DNA of 64,000 nt from Candidatus Melainabacteria bacterium (GTDB lineage: Bacteria; Cyanobacteriota; Vampirovibrionia; 2-02-FULL-35-15). The notes under the pieces were generated by a model. That model was not told the DNA's origin and did no database searches. It saw nothing but the letters and a program-made list of their open reading frames with translations. The stretch lies in assembly GCA_016193285.1 (NCBI GenBank), contig JACPSL010000002.1, positions 1 to 64,000 of the forward strand. The letters run 5' to 3'. A program made the translations under genes and the position numbers. Below, piece after piece: positions 12,823 to 38,415 of the stretch (position 1 is the first letter of the stretch; each line of letters starts with the position of its first letter).

Positions 12823-13500
12823 ATGCTTTTTACTAGTGCTATGAAAATTCAATTAAAAATAAGCCTGTTAATAATTTTTTTAACATTTTGTTTGCCAGCA
12901 AAAAGTACAAGCATTGATCGGTACGATAACTTGCTAAATAAGTTAGATAATTTACAAGCGAAAAAAACATTAGTTCTTACTTTTCAACATGATGAATTGC
13001 CTGTACTTGACGGGACATGGATACTTAAAAAGAAATCCATTAAAAGAATAGAAGCTCCTCTTCGCCAACCGATGACTCATTCACTTTGTAATTCAAGATT
13101 ACCATTTAAAGAAGACCAAATTGAGAAAGAAATAATTCTTAGTTCAAGAGGACAAGATTTTTTTGTATTTAGATCTATTTATCCTGCTACGGTTGACACT
13201 TATTTGAATTTAACCAAAACTAAAACAGCCCAGTATCAAAATTCTAGTTTAAAAGGTGTTGTTATCCCTGAAGAAATTACTTACGCTTATACTTTAAAAC
13301 TTATAAACCATCTGGAAAACCCAGCATATGTCAGGCAACTTTTTTATAGAGGGAAAATAATAACCAAGAGTATTTCCAGAGATAGAATTTCTGGCGAAGG
13401 ATATGAAATTGAATATACTCCTGAGTGTCAAGGCTTTGTTAGAAATGAAATAGTCTTTGAAATGATTAAGCAAAACAGTAATGAGCAATTAGGCATATAG
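12823..13500 (+). CDS. hypothetical secreted protein
   Basis: N-terminal signal-like segment MKIQLKISLLIIFLTFCLPAKS. Confidence 0.4.
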   Translation: MLFTSAMKIQLKISLLIIFLTFCLPAKSTSIDRYDNLLNKLDNLQAKKTLVLTFQHDELPVLDGTWILKKKSIKRIEAPLRQPMTHSLCNSRLPFKEDQIEKEIILSSRGQDFFVFRSIYPATVDTYLNLTKTKTAQYQNSSLKGVVIPEEITYAYTLKLINHLENPAYVRQLFYRGKIITKSISRDRISGEGYEIEYTPECQGFVRNEIVFEMIKQNSNEQLGI

Positions 13501-14307
13501 TTTACCATTTCTTAAAGCCATTTCAATATTTTTTACTTTTTCCATTAATTTTTTAAAGTCATCTAACTCTAATGCTTGCTGTTTATCACAAAGTGCAGCT
13601 TTTGGATTGTTGTGAACTTCAATAATTAATCCATTTGCACCAAGTGCAATTCCAGATAGTGCAAGAGGAGTTACATATTCTTTCTTCCCTGCTGGATGGC
13701 TTGGATCAAAAATTGTAATAAAACCTGCTTCTTGAAATTTTAAAATTGCTATATGATCAGCAGTAAACCTACCAGTGCCAGAAGCAGAGCTAAAAGTGGT
13801 AATGCCTCTTTCACACATTAGTACTGGACTGCCGCCAGCCTTTGCATATTCTGCCGCTAAAACCATTTCGTCTACAGTAGATCCTTTGCCTCTTTTTAAA
13901 AGTACAGGAATACCAGTTTTACCTACTTCTTTAAGAAGAAAATAGTTTTGGGCATTTCTTGAACCAATTTGAAAAATAAAAGGATGCCCTTTTGAAGCAG
14001 AAGTAATGGTACTTATCTGGCTTGCATCTATAACCTCAGTAACAACAGGTACATTAAATTTATTTCCTGCACTAAATAATAATTCTAAGCCTAAAGTACC
14101 TAAGCCTTGAAATGAATCAGGAGAAGTTCTTGGTTTATAAGCACCACCTCTAAACAAGGTAGCACCACTTTTTACAACGTGCTCTGCAATAGTAAATATT
14201 TGGCTCTCTGATTCAATTGCACATGGCCCAGCTATGTAAAAATTCTTACCTGGGTTTATGGTTATATCACCAACTTGAATTTTTCCATCACTACTTTTGT
14301 TATTCAT
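13489..14307 (-). CDS. 3-deoxy-7-phosphoheptulonate (DAHP) synthase, class I-beta catalytic core without a regulatory domain (AroF/AroG type)
   Basis: YIAGPCAIES, RGGAYKPRTSPDSFQGLG, QIGSRN, LLKRG, MCERG, DPSH and EVHNNP all match DAHPS I-beta. KDO8P synthase would instead show KSSFDKANRSS and QIPAF. RBS GGAGGAG. Confidence 0.85.
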   Translation of the reverse strand: MNNKSSDGKIQVGDITINPGKNFYIAGPCAIESESQIFTIAEHVVKSGATLFRGGAYKPRTSPDSFQGLGTLGLELLFSAGNKFNVPVVTEVIDASQISTITSASKGHPFIFQIGSRNAQNYFLLKEVGKTGIPVLLKRGKGSTVDEMVLAAEYAKAGGSPVLMCERGITTFSSASGTGRFTADHIAILKFQEAGFITIFDPSHPAGKKEYVTPLALSGIALGANGLIIEVHNNPKAALCDKQQALELDDFKKLMEKVKNIEMALRNGKLYA

Positions 14308-14325
14308 ACTTCCTTCTTCTCCTCC

Positions 14326-14361
14326 TAAAAATAAAAAACCCTGCTTTTTTTAGAGCAGGGT
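14326..14361 (-). terminator. Rho-independent terminator (AACCCTGCT-N8-AGCAGGGTT followed by UUUUUUAUUUUU) ending 2 nt before the aroF-like RBS; the terminator arm of an attenuator
   Basis: Seen directly on the minus strand. An alternative antiterminator segment AGAGCAGG at 14398..14405 is perfectly complementary to CCTGCTCT of the 5' arm. Confidence 0.55.
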
Positions 14362-14387
14362 TAATAAGTTACAAATTATAATTACAA

Positions 14388-14513
14388 CTAAAATCTACCT
14401 GCTCTTGCAAAGTTTAAATAAAACCAGAAATAATAAGAATTATTTCTTTTAACTAATTTGCCATGGCTTGTAGATAAATTAATCATTGCTAGTTTTATTA
14501 CTTTATACCACAT
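14388..14513 (-). CDS. putative attenuator leader peptide, 41 aa: MWYKVIKLAMINLSTSHGKLVKRNNSYYFWFYLNFARAGRF
   Basis: Translated by hand from the minus strand. It carries the run Tyr-Tyr-Phe-Trp-Phe-Tyr. The ORF reads through the antiterminator segment and stops 26 nt before the terminator 5' arm. Confidence 0.45.
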   Translation of the reverse strand: MWYKVIKLAMINLSTSHGKLVKRNNSYYFWFYLNFARAGRF

Positions 14514-14544
14514 CAGCAGATTAACCTAACATTATTATATTTTT

Positions 14545-14727
14545 TTAACAATTATCATGCAAAATTACAACTTTATACAATTCTTCTGCTTGATTCGTAA
14601 TTATGTAACTTACACCAAGAGATATTAATTTATTAACTTCTTTAAGTTCTTCTTGTTTGCTTTCAAACTCTACAAAAGTCTTTATTACCCTTCGTGATAT
14701 ACTTTCTAACAATACTTTAAAAACTAA
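14545..14727 (-). pseudogene. remnant of a glycerophosphodiester phosphodiesterase-like gene (C-terminal ~60 codons, no start codon)
   Basis: The minus-strand translation is …LVFKVLLESISRRVIKTFVEFESKQEELKEVNKLISLGVSYIITNQAEELYKVVILHDNC*. The LGVsyIITnqaeEL stretch resembles the GDPD C-terminal LGVDGIITDyPdrL. An in-frame stop lies immediately upstream. Confidence 0.3.
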
Positions 14728-14729
14728 TT

Positions 14730-15695
14730 ATGTTTGTATCTAGATTGGCTTCTAAGCTTTTTTCTACGTCTGTGCAAAGACCAATAACTAACATTTCAAC
14801 CCCTATGAAAGAAAATCTTTTTAACCATGTAAGTTACTTATCAAGCTTACAAAGACATGTAAACAATATAAATGGTTTAAATCAAGCTGGAGATTATATC
14901 CGCAGTCAATGGAATAATATGGGTTTGAAAGTTACTGAACAAAAATTTGAGGGTCCATCAGGAGACTCAAATGAATATAAAAACTTAATAGTTTCTTTTG
15001 GACCACAAAATGCACCAAGGATAATTCTTGGTGCACACTATGACTCTGAAGCAGAAAGTTTAACTCCTGGTGCAGATGATAATGCAAGCGGAATTGCTGG
15101 GATCATTGAAATTAGCAGATTATTAAAAGAAAAAAATCCAAGACTAACAAAAAGAATTGATGTTGTTGCATACACTACTGAAGAAAGACCACATTGTGCA
15201 CTTGACAATGGTGAGCTAGTAAAACATGTGCCTTACATGGGAAGTTATGTCCATGCAAAATCATTAAAAAAAGAAAATGTACCTGTAGTTGGTGCAATTA
15301 TTCTTGAAATGATTGGATATTTCTCTGACTTGGAAAATTCCCAGGAATATCCTTCCAAATTACTTAAACTCTTTTATCCAGTTACTGGAGACTTTATTGG
15401 TGTAGTTGGAAATTTAAATAGTTTTGATTTTATACAAAAAGTAAAAAGTAGTTTAAAAAAACATAGCTCGATTGATGTTAGATCAATTAGCATTCCCAGA
15501 ATTATAATTCCGGATATTAGCCGTTCTGATCATGACAGTTATTATGCTCATGGATACAAAGCTCTAATGGTTACTGATACAGCTGATTTTAGGAATCCAA
15601 ATTATCATAAAAGTACAGATACACCAGATACTTTAAGCTATGAGAAGATGGCAGAAATAGTAAAAGGTGTTTATGGGACTTTAATAAGTTTGTAA
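14730..15695 (+). CDS. M28-family zinc peptidase (aminopeptidase)
   Basis: ILGAHYDSEAESLTPGADDNASGIAGIIEISRLL is a metal-binding H/D/DD/E-type pattern of peptidase M28. Confidence 0.8.
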   Translation: MFVSRLASKLFSTSVQRPITNISTPMKENLFNHVSYLSSLQRHVNNINGLNQAGDYIRSQWNNMGLKVTEQKFEGPSGDSNEYKNLIVSFGPQNAPRIILGAHYDSEAESLTPGADDNASGIAGIIEISRLLKEKNPRLTKRIDVVAYTTEERPHCALDNGELVKHVPYMGSYVHAKSLKKENVPVVGAIILEMIGYFSDLENSQEYPSKLLKLFYPVTGDFIGVVGNLNSFDFIQKVKSSLKKHSSIDVRSISIPRIIIPDISRSDHDSYYAHGYKALMVTDTADFRNPNYHKSTDTPDTLSYEKMAEIVKGVYGTLISL

Positions 15696-35074: not shown

Positions 35075-36067
35075 CTACTCTACTAATCCAAATGCCTGAG
35101 CTAACAATGATTGATAATCAGAACTTATATTTGTTCCTCCTCCAACTTGTAGTCCACCAAAAGTATTGTCAACATAGCTTGGTGTAATTGTTATATCTAT
35201 GTATTTTTGTCCCATTGAATCAACTATTGCATTAATTTCTGCACCAAGAAAACCATCAGTCATTACTTCACTGGCCATGTCTGTTGAAGAAACCAGAGGA
35301 AACAAATAAGTCATTCCAACTAAAATATTTGGGTCCATATCCATAATAACTGCTCCCATTCCACCATCATTTACATTAAAAGTATCATTGACTGTAACTC
35401 CAGGCGGCTTAGTACCTATACCTGATTGAAAATAATCAATAACATTTTTAATGTCGGTTGTACTGGGATTACTGTTTGTATAATCAGTCCAATGAGCATT
35501 GTCTATATCACTGCCTGTATATAACCTCAACATATTTCCATTGTTTATAGCACTTGGCAATACTGAACTATCAATTACAAATGGAAACCCTGAACCTGCC
35601 AATGCCTTTCCTGCTGCTCTTTTTGCAACAGTAGCTTTATCATAAATTTGAACTTCGTTAATATTAAAAATCATACCTAAAAATGTTTTTGCTTTATATG
35701 TATATGAAACCATAATTGCATTTGGTGAAGGATGATTTTCATCCCATGTAAAAGTCATGTTATTAAAATCATAGACTCCAACTTGAATGGATAAATCATT
35801 GTTGTCAAGTGTTAAAGATACAAAATTAGGAATTGTTTTAGTTAGATTATTATTTAAATAATTTAAGGTTACATTTTTTGCACCAGAAATATTTTGATTA
35901 GTAACCAGCTGAGATATGCCTGCAAGTACTGAAAGATCAATCGCACTTTTTACATTTGTTTTTTTTGTATAGAAGTTTGACAAGTCAATCGTAATAGCAC
36001 CTAAGCCTAATACCGCTATTAATAGCAGTGCAAAAAATGGTATAACCATTCCATGTTTATTACGCAC
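35075..36067 (-). CDS. TadG-like Flp-pilus assembly protein (Tad domain, PF13400-like)
   Basis: An N-terminal TM segment, then …AIDLSVLAGISQL… resembling the TadE/G AaDaAALAGA motif. Confidence 0.55.
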   Translation of the reverse strand: MRNKHGMVIPFFALLLIAVLGLGAITIDLSNFYTKKTNVKSAIDLSVLAGISQLVTNQNISGAKNVTLNYLNNNLTKTIPNFVSLTLDNNDLSIQVGVYDFNNMTFTWDENHPSPNAIMVSYTYKAKTFLGMIFNINEVQIYDKATVAKRAAGKALAGSGFPFVIDSSVLPSAINNGNMLRLYTGSDIDNAHWTDYTNSNPSTTDIKNVIDYFQSGIGTKPPGVTVNDTFNVNDGGMGAVIMDMDPNILVGMTYLFPLVSSTDMASEVMTDGFLGAEINAIVDSMGQKYIDITITPSYVDNTFGGLQVGGGTNISSDYQSLLAQAFGLVE

Positions 36068-36482
36068 TTGACACCTCAGATCTTGCTACTGCTGTACTTT
36101 TTAAAACAGGTGCCCATGGCTGGCTTGAATTAAAAAGTCCAAAAGGATTTATTATCGGTGTGTAATTATACTGAACATTTACAGTAATGACATCTCCTAC
36201 TTTTTTTACTATTCCAGGAGATGGTGTAATAGTTAAAGTAAATTTTGCAATATCTGGCAATAGAGAATTAGCTCCTGAAGCATCAATAACATTTTGCTGT
36301 GTATAAGATGATGTAACCGATGCATACCTTACTGCAGATCTTGCAATTTGACTTAAACTATTTGATATATAAAACACACTGCCAAATTCATAAATAAAAA
36401 GAACTATCCCAAGTAATATTGGAATAACTAGTGCTGTTTCTGCCATTACACTTCCTTTAAAAGATCTAAATAAAAATTTCAT
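36060..36482 (-). CDS. TadE-like protein
   Basis: N-terminus …SVMAETALVIPILLGIVLFIYEFGSVFY…ARSAVRYA is the TadE-like pattern. It overlaps tadG by 8 bp. Confidence 0.55.
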   Translation of the reverse strand: MKFLFRSFKGSVMAETALVIPILLGIVLFIYEFGSVFYISNSLSQIARSAVRYASVTSSYTQQNVIDASGANSLLPDIAKFTLTITPSPGIVKKVGDVITVNVQYNYTPIINPFGLFNSSQPWAPVLKSTAVARSEVSSA

Positions 36483-36569
36483 AATTTAAATTTATAACCT
36501 CGTTCTACCTTTATTTTATTAAAAAGGCAAGGTTTACAAAAAATCTAATGATACCCCTACATGATAGCC

Positions 36570-37445
36570 CTAATAATAATAATAAGAGCGTTCATCTCCT
36601 AAAATTATTTCTATTGCATTTTCATTTTCATTTGCTGAAATTATTGCCTGAGTCTGTGAAATATCTTGTGCCCCTTCTGGCTTTTGAATTAGATCACCAT
36701 AAATATCTTCTAAATTAACCCCACTAGTTGCAGCTAACTTATCTTCTCCAAATGGCCTTAACACTAAGTGTAATTGGCCAACCTCACTAGCTAGTGCTAT
36801 TTTTTCTGCATCGTTTGAGCCAAGTGCAAGGGTTACTTGTGCAACTATTTTAGCTTGAGGTTCTGCAATAGAATTTATATCTAGAATTTTATCTCCTACT
36901 GCCAAGACTAAAATATTTTGTAAAATTGTTTTTGAAAATGTTTGTTGTTCATTACTTTTTAAAATTGAAACAATGTCAACACGATCACCTGGATTAATAA
37001 ATCCACCAACTCCAACTACTTCATTTACACGGATTGTTATTGCTCTTAGATCCTTTGGAATTACAACAGGCAAGCCACCACTAGCACCTTGACCAACAAG
37101 TCTGGTCTCAGTTACTACTTCATCAGCTTGTAATGTTGCTTTTACTATACGGTCTTTAACAGATGAAATTGAACTTGGATAATCTTTTGGAACTGCTTGT
37201 ACAGGAAATTGTTTAATTGCTAAATCGCTTTCTTGTAATTTAGTACCTGCTAGAATTTGTTTACCTGCTACAACAACTGGTTTTGTAACTGAGAGTGCTT
37301 TTACCTTTTCTTGTGTCTTGCTTAAATATTGCCAAACACCAGTTGCAGCAATTAATCCCAGGAACATTGCAAGTGAGGCCATGACCACAAGTGAATTAAT
37401 TTTGTTTTTGGTTTTTGGTGACAGGGGTGAAGGATTTATTGCCAT
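36570..37445 (-). CDS. cpaB: Flp pilus assembly protein CpaB/RcpC
   Basis: An N-terminal TM segment, an SAF-like domain (VVVAGKQILAGTKLQESDL) and the …IPKDLRAITIRVNEVVGVGGFINPGDRVDIV… beta-clip region. Confidence 0.7.
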   Translation of the reverse strand: MAINPSPLSPKTKNKINSLVVMASLAMFLGLIAATGVWQYLSKTQEKVKALSVTKPVVVAGKQILAGTKLQESDLAIKQFPVQAVPKDYPSSISSVKDRIVKATLQADEVVTETRLVGQGASGGLPVVIPKDLRAITIRVNEVVGVGGFINPGDRVDIVSILKSNEQQTFSKTILQNILVLAVGDKILDINSIAEPQAKIVAQVTLALGSNDAEKIALASEVGQLHLVLRPFGEDKLAATSGVNLEDIYGDLIQKPEGAQDISQTQAIISANENENAIEIILGDERSYYYY

Positions 37446-37933
37446 AGTTTTGAAAAAATTTCATCATTGATTCCAAATGTTATATATAAAATTGTACCCA
37501 GTGCAATAGCAACTCCATATGGCACTTTTTGTTTTTTATCTACAACTGGTAACATTTGTCCAGTTGTTATCAGAAACTTAAAATGACCTGAATTAAATAT
37601 TATCCAAACTAGTCCTAATAATAATCCACAAAATGCACTGTAGAAAAAAATAAAGATTACATCTTTAACTCCAACAATAGAGCCAATTACAGCAAGAAGC
37701 TTAACATCACCAGCACCCATCCCGCCTTTTAAGTAAGGAATTATCAAAAGTAAGATCCCAACAGTAAAGCCAAGTAAACAATTTACAATCCCTTGAAGTT
37801 TAAATGAAAAAATGTTTATTAAAAAAATAAAAATAAAAATACCAAAAATAAGCCAATTAGGAATCTTTCTATACTTCCAGTCAAAAAAACCACCTAAAAC
37901 AGATATTATTAAAAGTAATATTTCCTTACTCAT
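37436..37933 (-). CDS. cpaA: A24-family prepilin peptidase (CpaA/TadV)
   Basis: A small polytopic membrane protein with GGFFDWKYRKIPNWL and GAGDVKLLAVIGS motifs. Confidence 0.7.
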   Translation of the reverse strand: MSKEILLLIISVLGGFFDWKYRKIPNWLIFGIFIFIFLINIFSFKLQGIVNCLLGFTVGILLLIIPYLKGGMGAGDVKLLAVIGSIVGVKDVIFIFFYSAFCGLLLGLVWIIFNSGHFKFLITTGQMLPVVDKKQKVPYGVAIALGTILYITFGINDEIFSKLWQ

Positions 37934-37987
37934 AAAAAAAACATAGCCTTATCAGGCAGGCTATGTCAAATTTTCTTTAACTATTAT

Positions 37988-38191
37988 TTATTGAGTATTT
38001 AGTTCAGTATTAACATTAGTAAAAATATTCGAGATTGAGCCTCTCATTGAGATTATTATTGATGCAACACCAGCAGCAACAATTCCTAAGAGCAGTGCAT
38101 ATTCTGTCATTGATGCACCTTCTTCATCACGAATAAATCTAATGACTATGTCCATAAAGTTATTCCCAATCCTAAGCAATTGATCTAGCAA
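37988..38191 (-). CDS. flp: Flp/Fap-family pilin, copy 1
   Basis: …DEEGASMTEYALLLGIVAAGV… is the Flp motif (EEGAT.IEYGLI). Confidence 0.75.
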   Translation of the reverse strand: MLDQLLRIGNNFMDIVIRFIRDEEGASMTEYALLLGIVAAGVASIIISMRGSISNIFTNVNTELNTQ

Positions 38192-38250: not shown

Positions 38251-38415
38251 TTACTTAGTAAGTTCAGTATTAGCATTTGTAAAAATGGTCTTGATGGAGC
38301 CTCTCATTGTGACTATTACTGATGCAACACCAACAGCAATAAGTCCTAAGAGCAGTGCATATTCTGCCATTGATGCACCTTCTTCATCACGAATGAATTT
38401 AATGATTGTATCCAT
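38251..38415 (-). CDS. flp: Flp/Fap-family pilin, copy 2 (54 aa, not in the ORF track)
   Basis: Hand translation gives MDTIIKFIRDEEGASMAEYALLLGLIAVGVASVIVTMRGSIKTIFTNANTELTK. A GGAGG RBS lies 7 nt upstream. Confidence 0.7.
   Translation of the reverse strand: MDTIIKFIRDEEGASMAEYALLLGLIAVGVASVIVTMRGSIKTIFTNANTELTK

Follow-up and report, generated by a model that had tools for sequence, protein, structure and literature searches.

A predicted ribosome-mediated transcription attenuator with a leader peptide rich in aromatic codons upstream of a DAHP synthase gene of Melainabacteria

We analyzed a stretch of 64,000 nucleotides (31.6% G+C; hereafter, the window) from the genome of a Candidatus Melainabacteria bacterium (assembly GCA_016193285.1, contig JACPSL010000002.1, positions 1 to 64,000), with a focus on the region preceding its gene for 3-deoxy-D-arabino-heptulosonate 7-phosphate (DAHP) synthase. 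Our results indicate that this monocistronic gene is very probably controlled by a classical ribosome-mediated transcription attenuator. A previous sequence-only reading of the region had proposed such a system, of the trp/pheA type, and all of its elements were found where it had placed them, with only small errors in spacing. The comparison with relatives supports this proposal by both conservation and co-variation. We obtained the DNA of 13 distinct loci encoding DAHP synthases of the same clade, window included, and 11 of them carry a leader of the same design, rich in Phe, Tyr, and Trp codons.

The DAHP synthase gene (14307..13489, minus strand) is separated by 420 nt from a divergent gene encoding an M28 peptidase (14730..15695, plus strand). 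Since this upstream gene is divergent, the terminator found in the gap serves no other gene. All the elements of the leader are on the minus strand. The open reading frame (ORF) of the leader peptide, 14513..14388, has 41 codons from the ATG at 14513 to the stop codon TAG at 14390..14388, and encodes the 41-aa peptide that had been quoted for it. An in-frame ATG at 14486 defines a shorter frame of 32 codons (14486..14388; MINLSTSHGKLVKRNNSYYFWFYLNFARAGRF). The part of the peptide that begins there is homologous to the leader of L001, one of the related loci (MMNL...RNSYYFFWFYLNHAGGR), and this ATG may be the true start of the leader, instead of the one at 14513. The putative regulatory codons, TAT TAT TTC TGG TTT TAT, are at 14435..14418 and encode Tyr-Tyr-Phe-Trp-Phe-Tyr; codons 26 and 32 of the shorter frame add further Phe. 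Downstream, within the last codons of the ORF (R-A-G), lies segment 2, the 5' strand of the antiterminator (AGAGCAGG, 14405..14398), whose 3' end is 7 nt ahead of the stop codon. The aromatic run and the position of the stop codon after segment 2 are thus as previously described, whereas the gap between the run and the segment is not of 15 nt but of 12, i.e., the four codons L N F A.

Segment 2 is perfectly complementary, over 8 bp, to segment 3 (CCTGCTCT, 14359..14352), which comprises 6 nt of the 5' arm of the terminator and 2 nt of its loop. The two segments are 38 nt apart. Since segment 3 is common to the antiterminator and the terminator, the two helices are mutually exclusive, which confirms what had been claimed for them. 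The intrinsic terminator, AACCCTGCT-CTAAAAAA-AGCAGGGTT (14362..14337), has a 9-bp stem and an 8-nt loop (-13.6 kcal/mol), and is followed by a T-rich tail of 10 nt, TTTTATTTTT (14336..14327). The sequence 3' of the terminator continues with AGGAGGAG to the DAHP synthase ATG at 14307. The Shine-Dalgarno motif of the gene, GGAGGAG (14325..14319), indeed comes directly after the T-run, from which it is separated by a single nt (A) and not by the two reported earlier. Only 19 nt separate the T-run from the ATG, and a promoter scan over 3 kb revealed no promoter-like site between the terminator and the gene. This bears out the earlier remark that there is no room for a promoter in this interval.

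These elements suggest the following mechanism. Transcription would start 5' of the short leader ORF, and a ribosome would translate it at once. With plentiful charged tRNA-Phe, tRNA-Tyr, and tRNA-Trp, the ribosome would pass the YYFWFY run, reach the stop codon, and cover or melt segment 2. Segment 3 would then be free to pair with segment 4, the terminator would form, and the RNA polymerase would be released at the T-run. A shortage of any one of these charged tRNAs would instead stall the ribosome on the run, at least 12 nt 5' of segment 2, and segments 2 and 3 would pair once transcribed. No terminator would form, and the polymerase would read into the DAHP synthase gene. Translation of the leader ORF, termination in vivo, and a response to the amino-acid supply are thus predicted from the sequence elements. 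The leader contains Phe, Tyr, and Trp codons, and the control is therefore probably multivalent.

About 36 short DAHP synthases (263-293 aa), 59-100% identical, form a clade with the protein of the window. The ten further leaders are those of loci L001, L004, L005, L008, L010, L011, L012, L013, L016, and L017, with DAHP synthase identities of 59-79%. They come mostly from metagenome contigs, plus two records named as metagenome-assembled genomes (MAGs; Melainabacteria and 'Roizmanbacteria'). A protein scan of genome contigs with the DAHP synthase gave two loci, one of them useful, and a scan of metagenome contigs with an alignment of two proteins gave no matches. When metagenomes were scanned with a structured DNA pattern of the leader, only two loci were returned: L014, a JGI contig that is the same as L005, and L015, which we rejected because it is the end of an unrelated gene with a terminator. 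The genes further upstream vary among loci (M28 peptidase, GCS2-like ligase, recA, trpR, and others). Hence, the leader travels with the DAHP synthase gene and not with the neighboring genes. As to taxonomy, L017 (GCA_016181725.1, JACOYT010000024.1) is labelled Candidatus Roizmanbacteria, a lineage of the Candidate Phyla Radiation; its DAHP synthase is 59% identical to that of the window, and the same kind of leader is preceded by a near-consensus promoter, TTGACT-16-TATAAT, 7 nt 5' of the leader ATG. Its occurrence in a contig of Roizmanbacteria could be a case of mis-binning or of lateral transfer.

The predicted leader peptides are M(I)NLSTSHGKLVKRNNSYYFWFYLNFARAGRF in the window, MMNLHANYSDLTPRNSYYFFWFYLNHAGGR in L001, MTNLFSYFWFYFTSQGSR in L004, MQKPIFSFFWFYFNPQRSD in L005, MQRTTYNFFWFYFFPKGSD in both L008 and L013, MFKTKNNLKDNQNFYFWWLNYFIRRSR in L010, MHIYNKTKYQMTFSWWSNQNYGSF in L011, MKNNTNTTFNFYWWYGEYLY in L012, MNISSQNFYFFYFYPPTGRLAAGVTR in L016, and MKLVLQKFWFSYFYPARNGRSVM in L017. 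The ten leaders of the relatives have open frames of 18-30 codons, and when the window is included (18-32 codons) there are 6-8 Phe, Tyr, or Trp codons in 11/11, always in an open frame and with synonymous variation between TTT and TTC and between TAT and TAC. Over the ~257 codons of the 11 leaders there are no in-frame stop codons, whereas the alternative frames contain 15 and 21. Between L008 and L013, the ORFs show five nucleotide changes, all of them synonymous and at third positions, and the spacers downstream of them have indels. Similarly, the insertions between the window and L001 are whole codons (NNS vs NS; YYFWFY vs YYFFWFY). The more divergent leaders keep the aromatic composition in one frame, and neither a nucleotide motif nor the order of the peptide. 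The leader ORF is therefore under a coding-type constraint. It was not called as a gene in any of the nine leader loci for which gene calls were returned, all of them in metagenome contigs.

This constraint bears on the alternative that has the most left in its favor, although we regard it as improbable. In that case the switch would be set by an RNA-binding protein (as for TRAP or PyrR), by uncharged tRNA (as in T-boxes), or by a riboswitch, and the ORF would be incidental. Alternative hairpins, taken alone, fit any antitermination system, and the lack of a Shine-Dalgarno motif before the leader ORF (see below) would be in line with an untranslated leader. We searched Rfam 15 for known families, using E-values up to 10 in the leader region and the gathering thresholds in the whole window. 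Some cis-regulatory families do match the terminator region, at scores far below threshold (PyrR, 21.6 bits vs a gathering score of 54; L20_leader, 16.2 vs 58.7). At threshold, the whole window has only two tRNAs and no cis-regulatory family, be it T-box, PyrR site, riboswitch, or other. Phe_leader (RF01859), with 21.8 bits and an E-value of 0.84 against a gathering score of 55, does not include the leader of the window either. A switch that ignores the ribosome also fails to account for a frame that is open in every leader, for the purely synonymous differences between L008 and L013, and for the conservation of codon composition in one frame instead of RNA sequence or shape. Finally, there is no conserved structure of ligand-binding size 5' of segment 2, and some leaders have only ~55 nt from ATG to stop.

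One can also accept that the leader is translated and propose that the aromatic peptide acts as a nascent-chain sensor, i.e., that a free amino acid arrests the ribosome as in TnaC, with no role for tRNA charging. Nascent peptides rich in aromatic residues are able to contact the exit tunnel, and six or seven of the closer leaders share an unchanged F-W-F-Y motif. In the wider family, however, it is the composition that is kept, and the order varies (FYFWW, FYWWY, FWFSYFY, FYFFYFY, FSWW). Furthermore, TnaC-type arrest induces catabolic genes upon excess of the amino acid, whereas here the target is biosynthetic and stalling would lead to read-through, which is the wrong sign. We thus consider this sensor quite unlikely.

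The sequence-only reading had named, as a way to check the attenuator, the conservation and co-variation of the codon run and of the hairpins in relatives. We carried out this comparison, and its outcome was positive for the stems of all 11 loci. The MAFFT alignments of the leaders and of the terminators failed to keep the divergent members in register. We therefore counted the pairs from the T-run, taken as an anchor, and used a permutation test instead. A terminator hairpin followed by a T-run is present in 11/11 loci (-10.6 to -21.1 kcal/mol) and begins in all of them 21-32 nt past the stop codon. Its six basal pairs, counted inward from the T-run, have standard pairing in every locus, with 2-4 pair types per position, i.e., the changes in the stem are double-sided and compensatory. 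In L011 (1304-1500), two successive terminators precede the gene, GCTCCC-AACC-GGGAGC followed by T6 and then CCCGGCTT-ATTAAC-AAGTCGGG followed by T6.

In each of the 11 leaders, the 5' arm or the loop of the terminator has its own complement at the 3' end of the ORF. The resulting antiterminator helices have 8-15 bp and energies of -13.9 to -24.2 kcal/mol (with the part covered by the ribosome masked). The pairs include AGAGCAGG:CCTGCTCT, TGCTGGAG:CTCCAGCA, AGGAGCG:CGCTCCT, GGGAGCG:CGCTCCC, GGGAGCTT:AAGCTCCC, GGGAGGTTGG:CCAAaCCTCCC, and GGGCGG:CCGCCC. In 9 of the 11 loci, segment 2 ends 0-9 nt 5' of the stop codon. The native pairing of segments 2 and 3 has a mean energy of -14.3 kcal/mol, versus -10.2 +/- 0.7 when the partners are permuted among loci, and none of 20,000 permutations reached the native mean. 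The own partner ranked first in 8/11 loci, and the window's own terminator was the first of 11. The duplex of the window has -14.9 kcal/mol, and 0/500 shuffles were as good. When segment 2 was defined neutrally, from 24 nt before to 12 nt after the stop codon, at most 1.6% of its shuffles reached the native energy in 8 of the 9 loci analyzed.

Folds with segments masked as under a ribosome, also suggested by the sequence-only reading, reproduced the expected behavior. They were made for nine leaders (all except L016 and L017), with the nucleotides beneath the ribosome forced to be single-stranded. When the 3' arm of the terminator is not yet made and the A site of the ribosome is at those codons of the aromatic run from which segment 2 stays uncovered, the antiterminator has ~-15 to -21 kcal/mol. 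For a ribosome that has reached the stop codon, the antiterminator is left with 0 to -4.4 kcal/mol, such that the terminator would form unopposed. In the window, with the ribosome stalled at codons 18-21, the antiterminator is the minimum free energy structure of the full-length leader (-21.5 kcal/mol vs -18.8 with the terminator forced). The constrained folds support the logic of classical attenuation.

The co-variation of the two helices is also a point against the possibility that the small ORF is an independent gene, for a small protein or a small RNA, which ends at its own terminator, the DAHP synthase being expressed by leakage or from an unrecognised promoter without any sensing of amino acids. 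In L004, L005, L008, and L013, the terminator and the start of the DAHP synthase gene are 45-60 nt apart, and this spacer, with its palindrome, could hide a promoter. However, the gap is too short for a promoter in the window, L001, L010, and L012. An independent gene would have no use for the co-varying match that links the 3' end of the ORF to the 5' arm of the terminator, and the ORF is always linked to the DAHP synthase gene in spite of differing upstream genes. We therefore give this alternative very little credit, even less than the nascent-chain sensor.

The palindrome in these spacers is of interest in itself. It is a small conserved hairpin between the T-run and the ribosome binding site of the DAHP synthase gene (TTTGCAATGGAGCAAA, TTTGCAATGATGCAAA, AGACTTGCCATGGCAAGTCT), whose structure is kept and whose sequence varies. 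It is found at ~1455-1475 in L004, ~1455-1478 in L005, ~1452-1470 in L008, and ~1452-1472 in L013, and is absent from the window and from L001. Its conceivable roles are those of an operator, of a hairpin for processing or stability, or of a component in a second layer of regulation.

Taken one by one, some elements of the leader could be expected by chance in AT-rich DNA. The six frames of the window have 22 runs of at least five aromatic codons, six of which have at least six, and 18 of the 22 fall within long ORFs that use another frame or the opposite strand. By itself, the aromatic run is thus unremarkable in this window. The most striking of the others, the 10-codon run YFWYFYFYFF (37850..37821, minus strand), was rejected since it is out of frame within a gene for a membrane protein. 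Terminator-like hairpins are expected by chance at 1.5 per 3 kb. Strong hairpins with a T-run directly 5' of a long ORF on the same strand are found at only three sites in the whole window, and the one of the DAHP synthase gene is the sole site without a gene before it on that strand. The other two were discarded, one because it is weak and the other because it is the ordinary terminator of the pilin-like gene that precedes it. The idea that an AT-rich ORF, a terminator, and an 8-nt complement came together by accident is effectively refuted, because the ensemble recurs in ten other loci where the sequences differ and the pairing is preserved, which is far beyond chance.

Several observations weigh against the attenuator as proposed. 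The 11 leader sequences are related and hence are not 11 independent observations, and all of them come from uncultured metagenome assemblies. As seen above, runs of aromatic codons often arise by chance in DNA this rich in A+T. The native pairing of segment 2 in L012 is no better than that of its shuffles, and the stop codon of this locus is just before segment 2, whereas that of L016 is 17 nt beyond it. At full-length equilibrium the terminator is favored in most loci, even with a stalled ribosome; in these the decision must be kinetic, i.e., co-transcriptional, as in Escherichia coli. The classical model also has a segment 1 able to sequester segment 2, which leads to termination if the leader goes untranslated. 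Partners of this type were found in 11/11 loci, but their energies range from -5.6 to -16.8 kcal/mol and they differ from locus to locus, such that this anti-antiterminator is weak and has no positional conservation. In the window, the candidate is the hairpin AGAAATAAT-TCTT-ATTATTTCT (14447..14426, minus strand), which lies over codons R-N-N-S-Y-Y-F, is also present in L001, and is tentatively regarded as a pause or segment 1 structure. The segment 1 partner is the least secure part of the model. Lastly, the leaders lack a Shine-Dalgarno-like 4-mer 3-12 nt 5' of the conserved ATG in 11/11 loci, and the start codon of the leader in the window is ambiguous, either 14513 or 14486.

The DAHP synthase genes, unlike the leader ORFs, have strong Shine-Dalgarno motifs; ahead of the ATG at 14513 there is nothing better than a weak AGG, ~14 nt away. 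Hence, initiation on the leaders must be leaderless or independent of this motif. The former is suggested by the presence of a TATAAT-like -10 box, often extended (TG), 7-9 nt 5' of the leader ATG in six of the 11 loci (L001, at 2801-2814, L004, L005, L008, L013, and L017), such that translation of the leader peptides probably begins on leaderless transcripts. The window is not among these six, which adds to the difficulties listed above. Its best promoter-like site is TTTGCA-18-TATAAT (14563..14534, minus strand), with 10/12 matches, the top site of this strand in the 3 kb scanned and tied only by one site on the plus strand. Transcription from it would start ~14 nt before the ATG at 14513 and ~40 nt before that at 14486. 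An alternative extended -10 box, TGgTATAAA (14510..14502, minus strand), is found 15 nt 5' of the internal ATG.

There are precedents for this type of initiation. A mycobacterial study on polycysteine attenuators describes regulatory upstream ORFs rich in the cognate codon, located at the 5' end of the transcript and lacking a Shine-Dalgarno motif (bioRxiv 10.1101/834739), and leaderless mRNAs with leader peptides are discussed for Deinococcus deserti (PMC4007540). The leaders with a -10 box next to the ATG resemble the mycobacterial ones, as far as these are described there, and leaderless initiation would be common to both. Two further observations were made in this region. The motif AATTGTTAAAAAA is found in the window at 14554..14542 (minus strand) and in L001 at 2752-2764, in flanks that have otherwise diverged, ~55-60 nt 5' of the homologous leader ATG, and may be an UP-element-like or regulatory site. 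A 55-aa ORF (14712..14545) was compared with the gene upstream of the L001 leader, as a possible relic of it, and showed no similarity.

The mechanism is a textbook one and has a precedent for this enzyme; the novelty lies in the taxon, the uncatalogued family, and the mixture of Phe, Tyr, and Trp codons. The closest precedent is the aroR leader peptide (Phe-Tyr-Phe), found by RNA-seq upstream of aroF, the DAHP synthase gene of Corynebacterium glutamicum (Mentz et al. 2013, PMC4046766). According to the passage of a later article that summarizes the work on aroR, stalling at its aromatic codons raises the transcription of aroF, in response to Phe limitation only (Neshat et al. 2014, via PMC11802643). 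Compared by description only, the two systems share an aromatic leader ORF, the enzymatic step, and the logic, and they differ in that aroR has three aromatic codons and no Trp, whereas the present leaders have more of them, usually with Trp, and are in Melainabacteria instead of Actinobacteria. The enzyme of C. glutamicum is of a larger DAHP synthase type and is feedback-inhibited.

In comparison with trpL, pheL (of pheA), and pheM (of pheST) of E. coli, the shared traits are a leader ORF with cognate codons, the competition of 2:3 and 3:4 pairing, the T-run, and the absence of a promoter before the gene. Those leaders control terminal-pathway or tRNA-synthetase genes, with a single amino-acid species each, whereas the gene controlled here would be that of DAHP synthase. 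Unlike in them, segment 2 of the window is inside the ORF, 5' of the stop codon. Leaders with mixed codons exist in the enterobacterial operons ilvGMEDA (Ile/Leu/Val) and thr (Thr/Ile), where a shortage of any end product relieves termination. Ours resemble them in mixing the codons of a branched pathway, with other amino acids and another pathway, and their multivalency is read from codon content only. The DAHP synthase genes of E. coli are under the control of TyrR and TrpR plus allostery (PMC11802643). Terminator and antiterminator structures have been predicted 5' of aroA(I-beta) > tyrA operons, e.g., in Thermus thermophilus (Merino attenuator database; PMC1173090, Table 7). In the relevant passages of that source these predictions concern structure only and no leader peptide is mentioned; they also involve other taxa and operon contents. 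Our full-text literature search found no paper describing a leader-peptide attenuator in Melainabacteria.

The product of the gene is a type I-beta DAHP synthase of 272 aa (PF00793, residues 17-261, E-value 1.5e-54). It consists of the catalytic barrel only, without an N-terminal ferredoxin-like/ACT domain or a chorismate-mutase domain. It aligns end to end with the barrel-only enzymes of Pyrococcus furiosus (1ZCO, 262 aa) and Aeropyrum pernix (1VS1, 276 aa). In contrast, it matches only residues 80-333 of the enzyme of Thermotoga maritima (1RZM), leaving unmatched the first ~80 residues, which we take to be the regulatory domain of that protein, and residues 108-354 of 5J6F, deposited as a DAHP synthase/chorismate mutase isozyme. 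This agrees with the earlier statement that the synthase has no regulatory domain. More distant homologues (329-340 aa) carry PF18152. To our knowledge, barrel-only DAHP synthases are not feedback-inhibited. Since the enzyme is a bare barrel, the sensing of the three end products at the level of transcription would be a sensible substitute for allostery, and the leader plausibly takes the place of the missing feedback. Downstream, the 3' end of the gene overlaps by 12 nt (13489..13500) the end of a convergent ORF of 225 aa (12823..13500, plus strand; no Pfam match), and no terminator was found between the two.

The leader composition seems to track the content of the operon, as exemplified by L011 (1501-3813), where the DAHP synthase gene is the first of an operon with trpE and trpG and the leader is dominated by Trp-Trp. 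A second type of control is apparent in sister loci. A trpR gene (PF01371) is directly upstream of the DAHP synthase gene, or overlaps it, in L006/L007 (1238-1501), L009 (1257-1508), L010 (1090-1335), and L011 (926-1180). Palindromes resembling operators are found in the promoters of L009 (GTACTAGCATACTAGTAC), L012 (GTACTAGCACGCTAGTAT, ~1230-1265), and L007 and L011 (CATACTAGTAC). Hence, TrpR occurs without a leader in L006/L007 and L009 and together with one in L010 and L011, and L012 has a leader and an operator-like site. These gene contents predict that sister lineages control the same DAHP synthase differently. A DAHP synthase repressed by TrpR is also known in E. coli, where it is encoded by aroH. 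In the window, i.e., 64 kb of genome, tblastn gave no match to the TrpR of the relatives below an E-value of 0.7, and no half-site of the TrpR operator (GTACTAG..CTAGTAC) was found within 7 kb of the DAHP synthase promoter.

A broader interpretation can be formulated, which we offer tentatively since we would not quite bet on it as a whole. The leaders would form an uncatalogued family of attenuators specific to Melainabacteria, in which one leader senses the charging of all three aromatic tRNAs (Phe, Tyr, and Trp). This would be the only feedback at the start of the shikimate pathway, the allosteric domain of the DAHP synthase having been lost or having never existed. Initiation would be leaderless or at least independent of a Shine-Dalgarno motif, with a pioneer ribosome loading as the transcript emerges. 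This control would have been exchanged or combined with TrpR repression among the sister lineages, giving rise to loci with the leader only, TrpR only, or both.

At the conceptual level, the attenuator is a confirmation of known biology and introduces no new principle. It adds Melainabacteria (Vampirovibrionia), the sister group of Cyanobacteria that lacks photosynthesis, to the lineages with classical leader-peptide attenuation, and illustrates how the flow of carbon into the shikimate pathway could be matched to the demand where DAHP synthase lacks an allosteric domain. The 11 leaders are a natural series that can be used to seed an RNA family model, to test how mixed codons affect the sensitivity of an attenuator, and to improve the annotation of MAGs.

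Elsewhere in the window, the regions that gave the rejected candidates have some features of their own. The gene that holds the 10-codon aromatic run (37933..37436, minus strand) encodes a membrane protein of 165 aa that resembles prepilin peptidases. Just 5' of it, at 37967..37940, is the strong terminator that follows a pilin-like ORF. This ORF is the first of two small ones in tandem (37988..38191 and 38251..38415, minus strand), both with N-termini like those of Flp-type pilins (…EGASM(T/A)EYALLLG…). Genes resembling those of Tad pili are found downstream of them, at 35075..37445 on the same strand.

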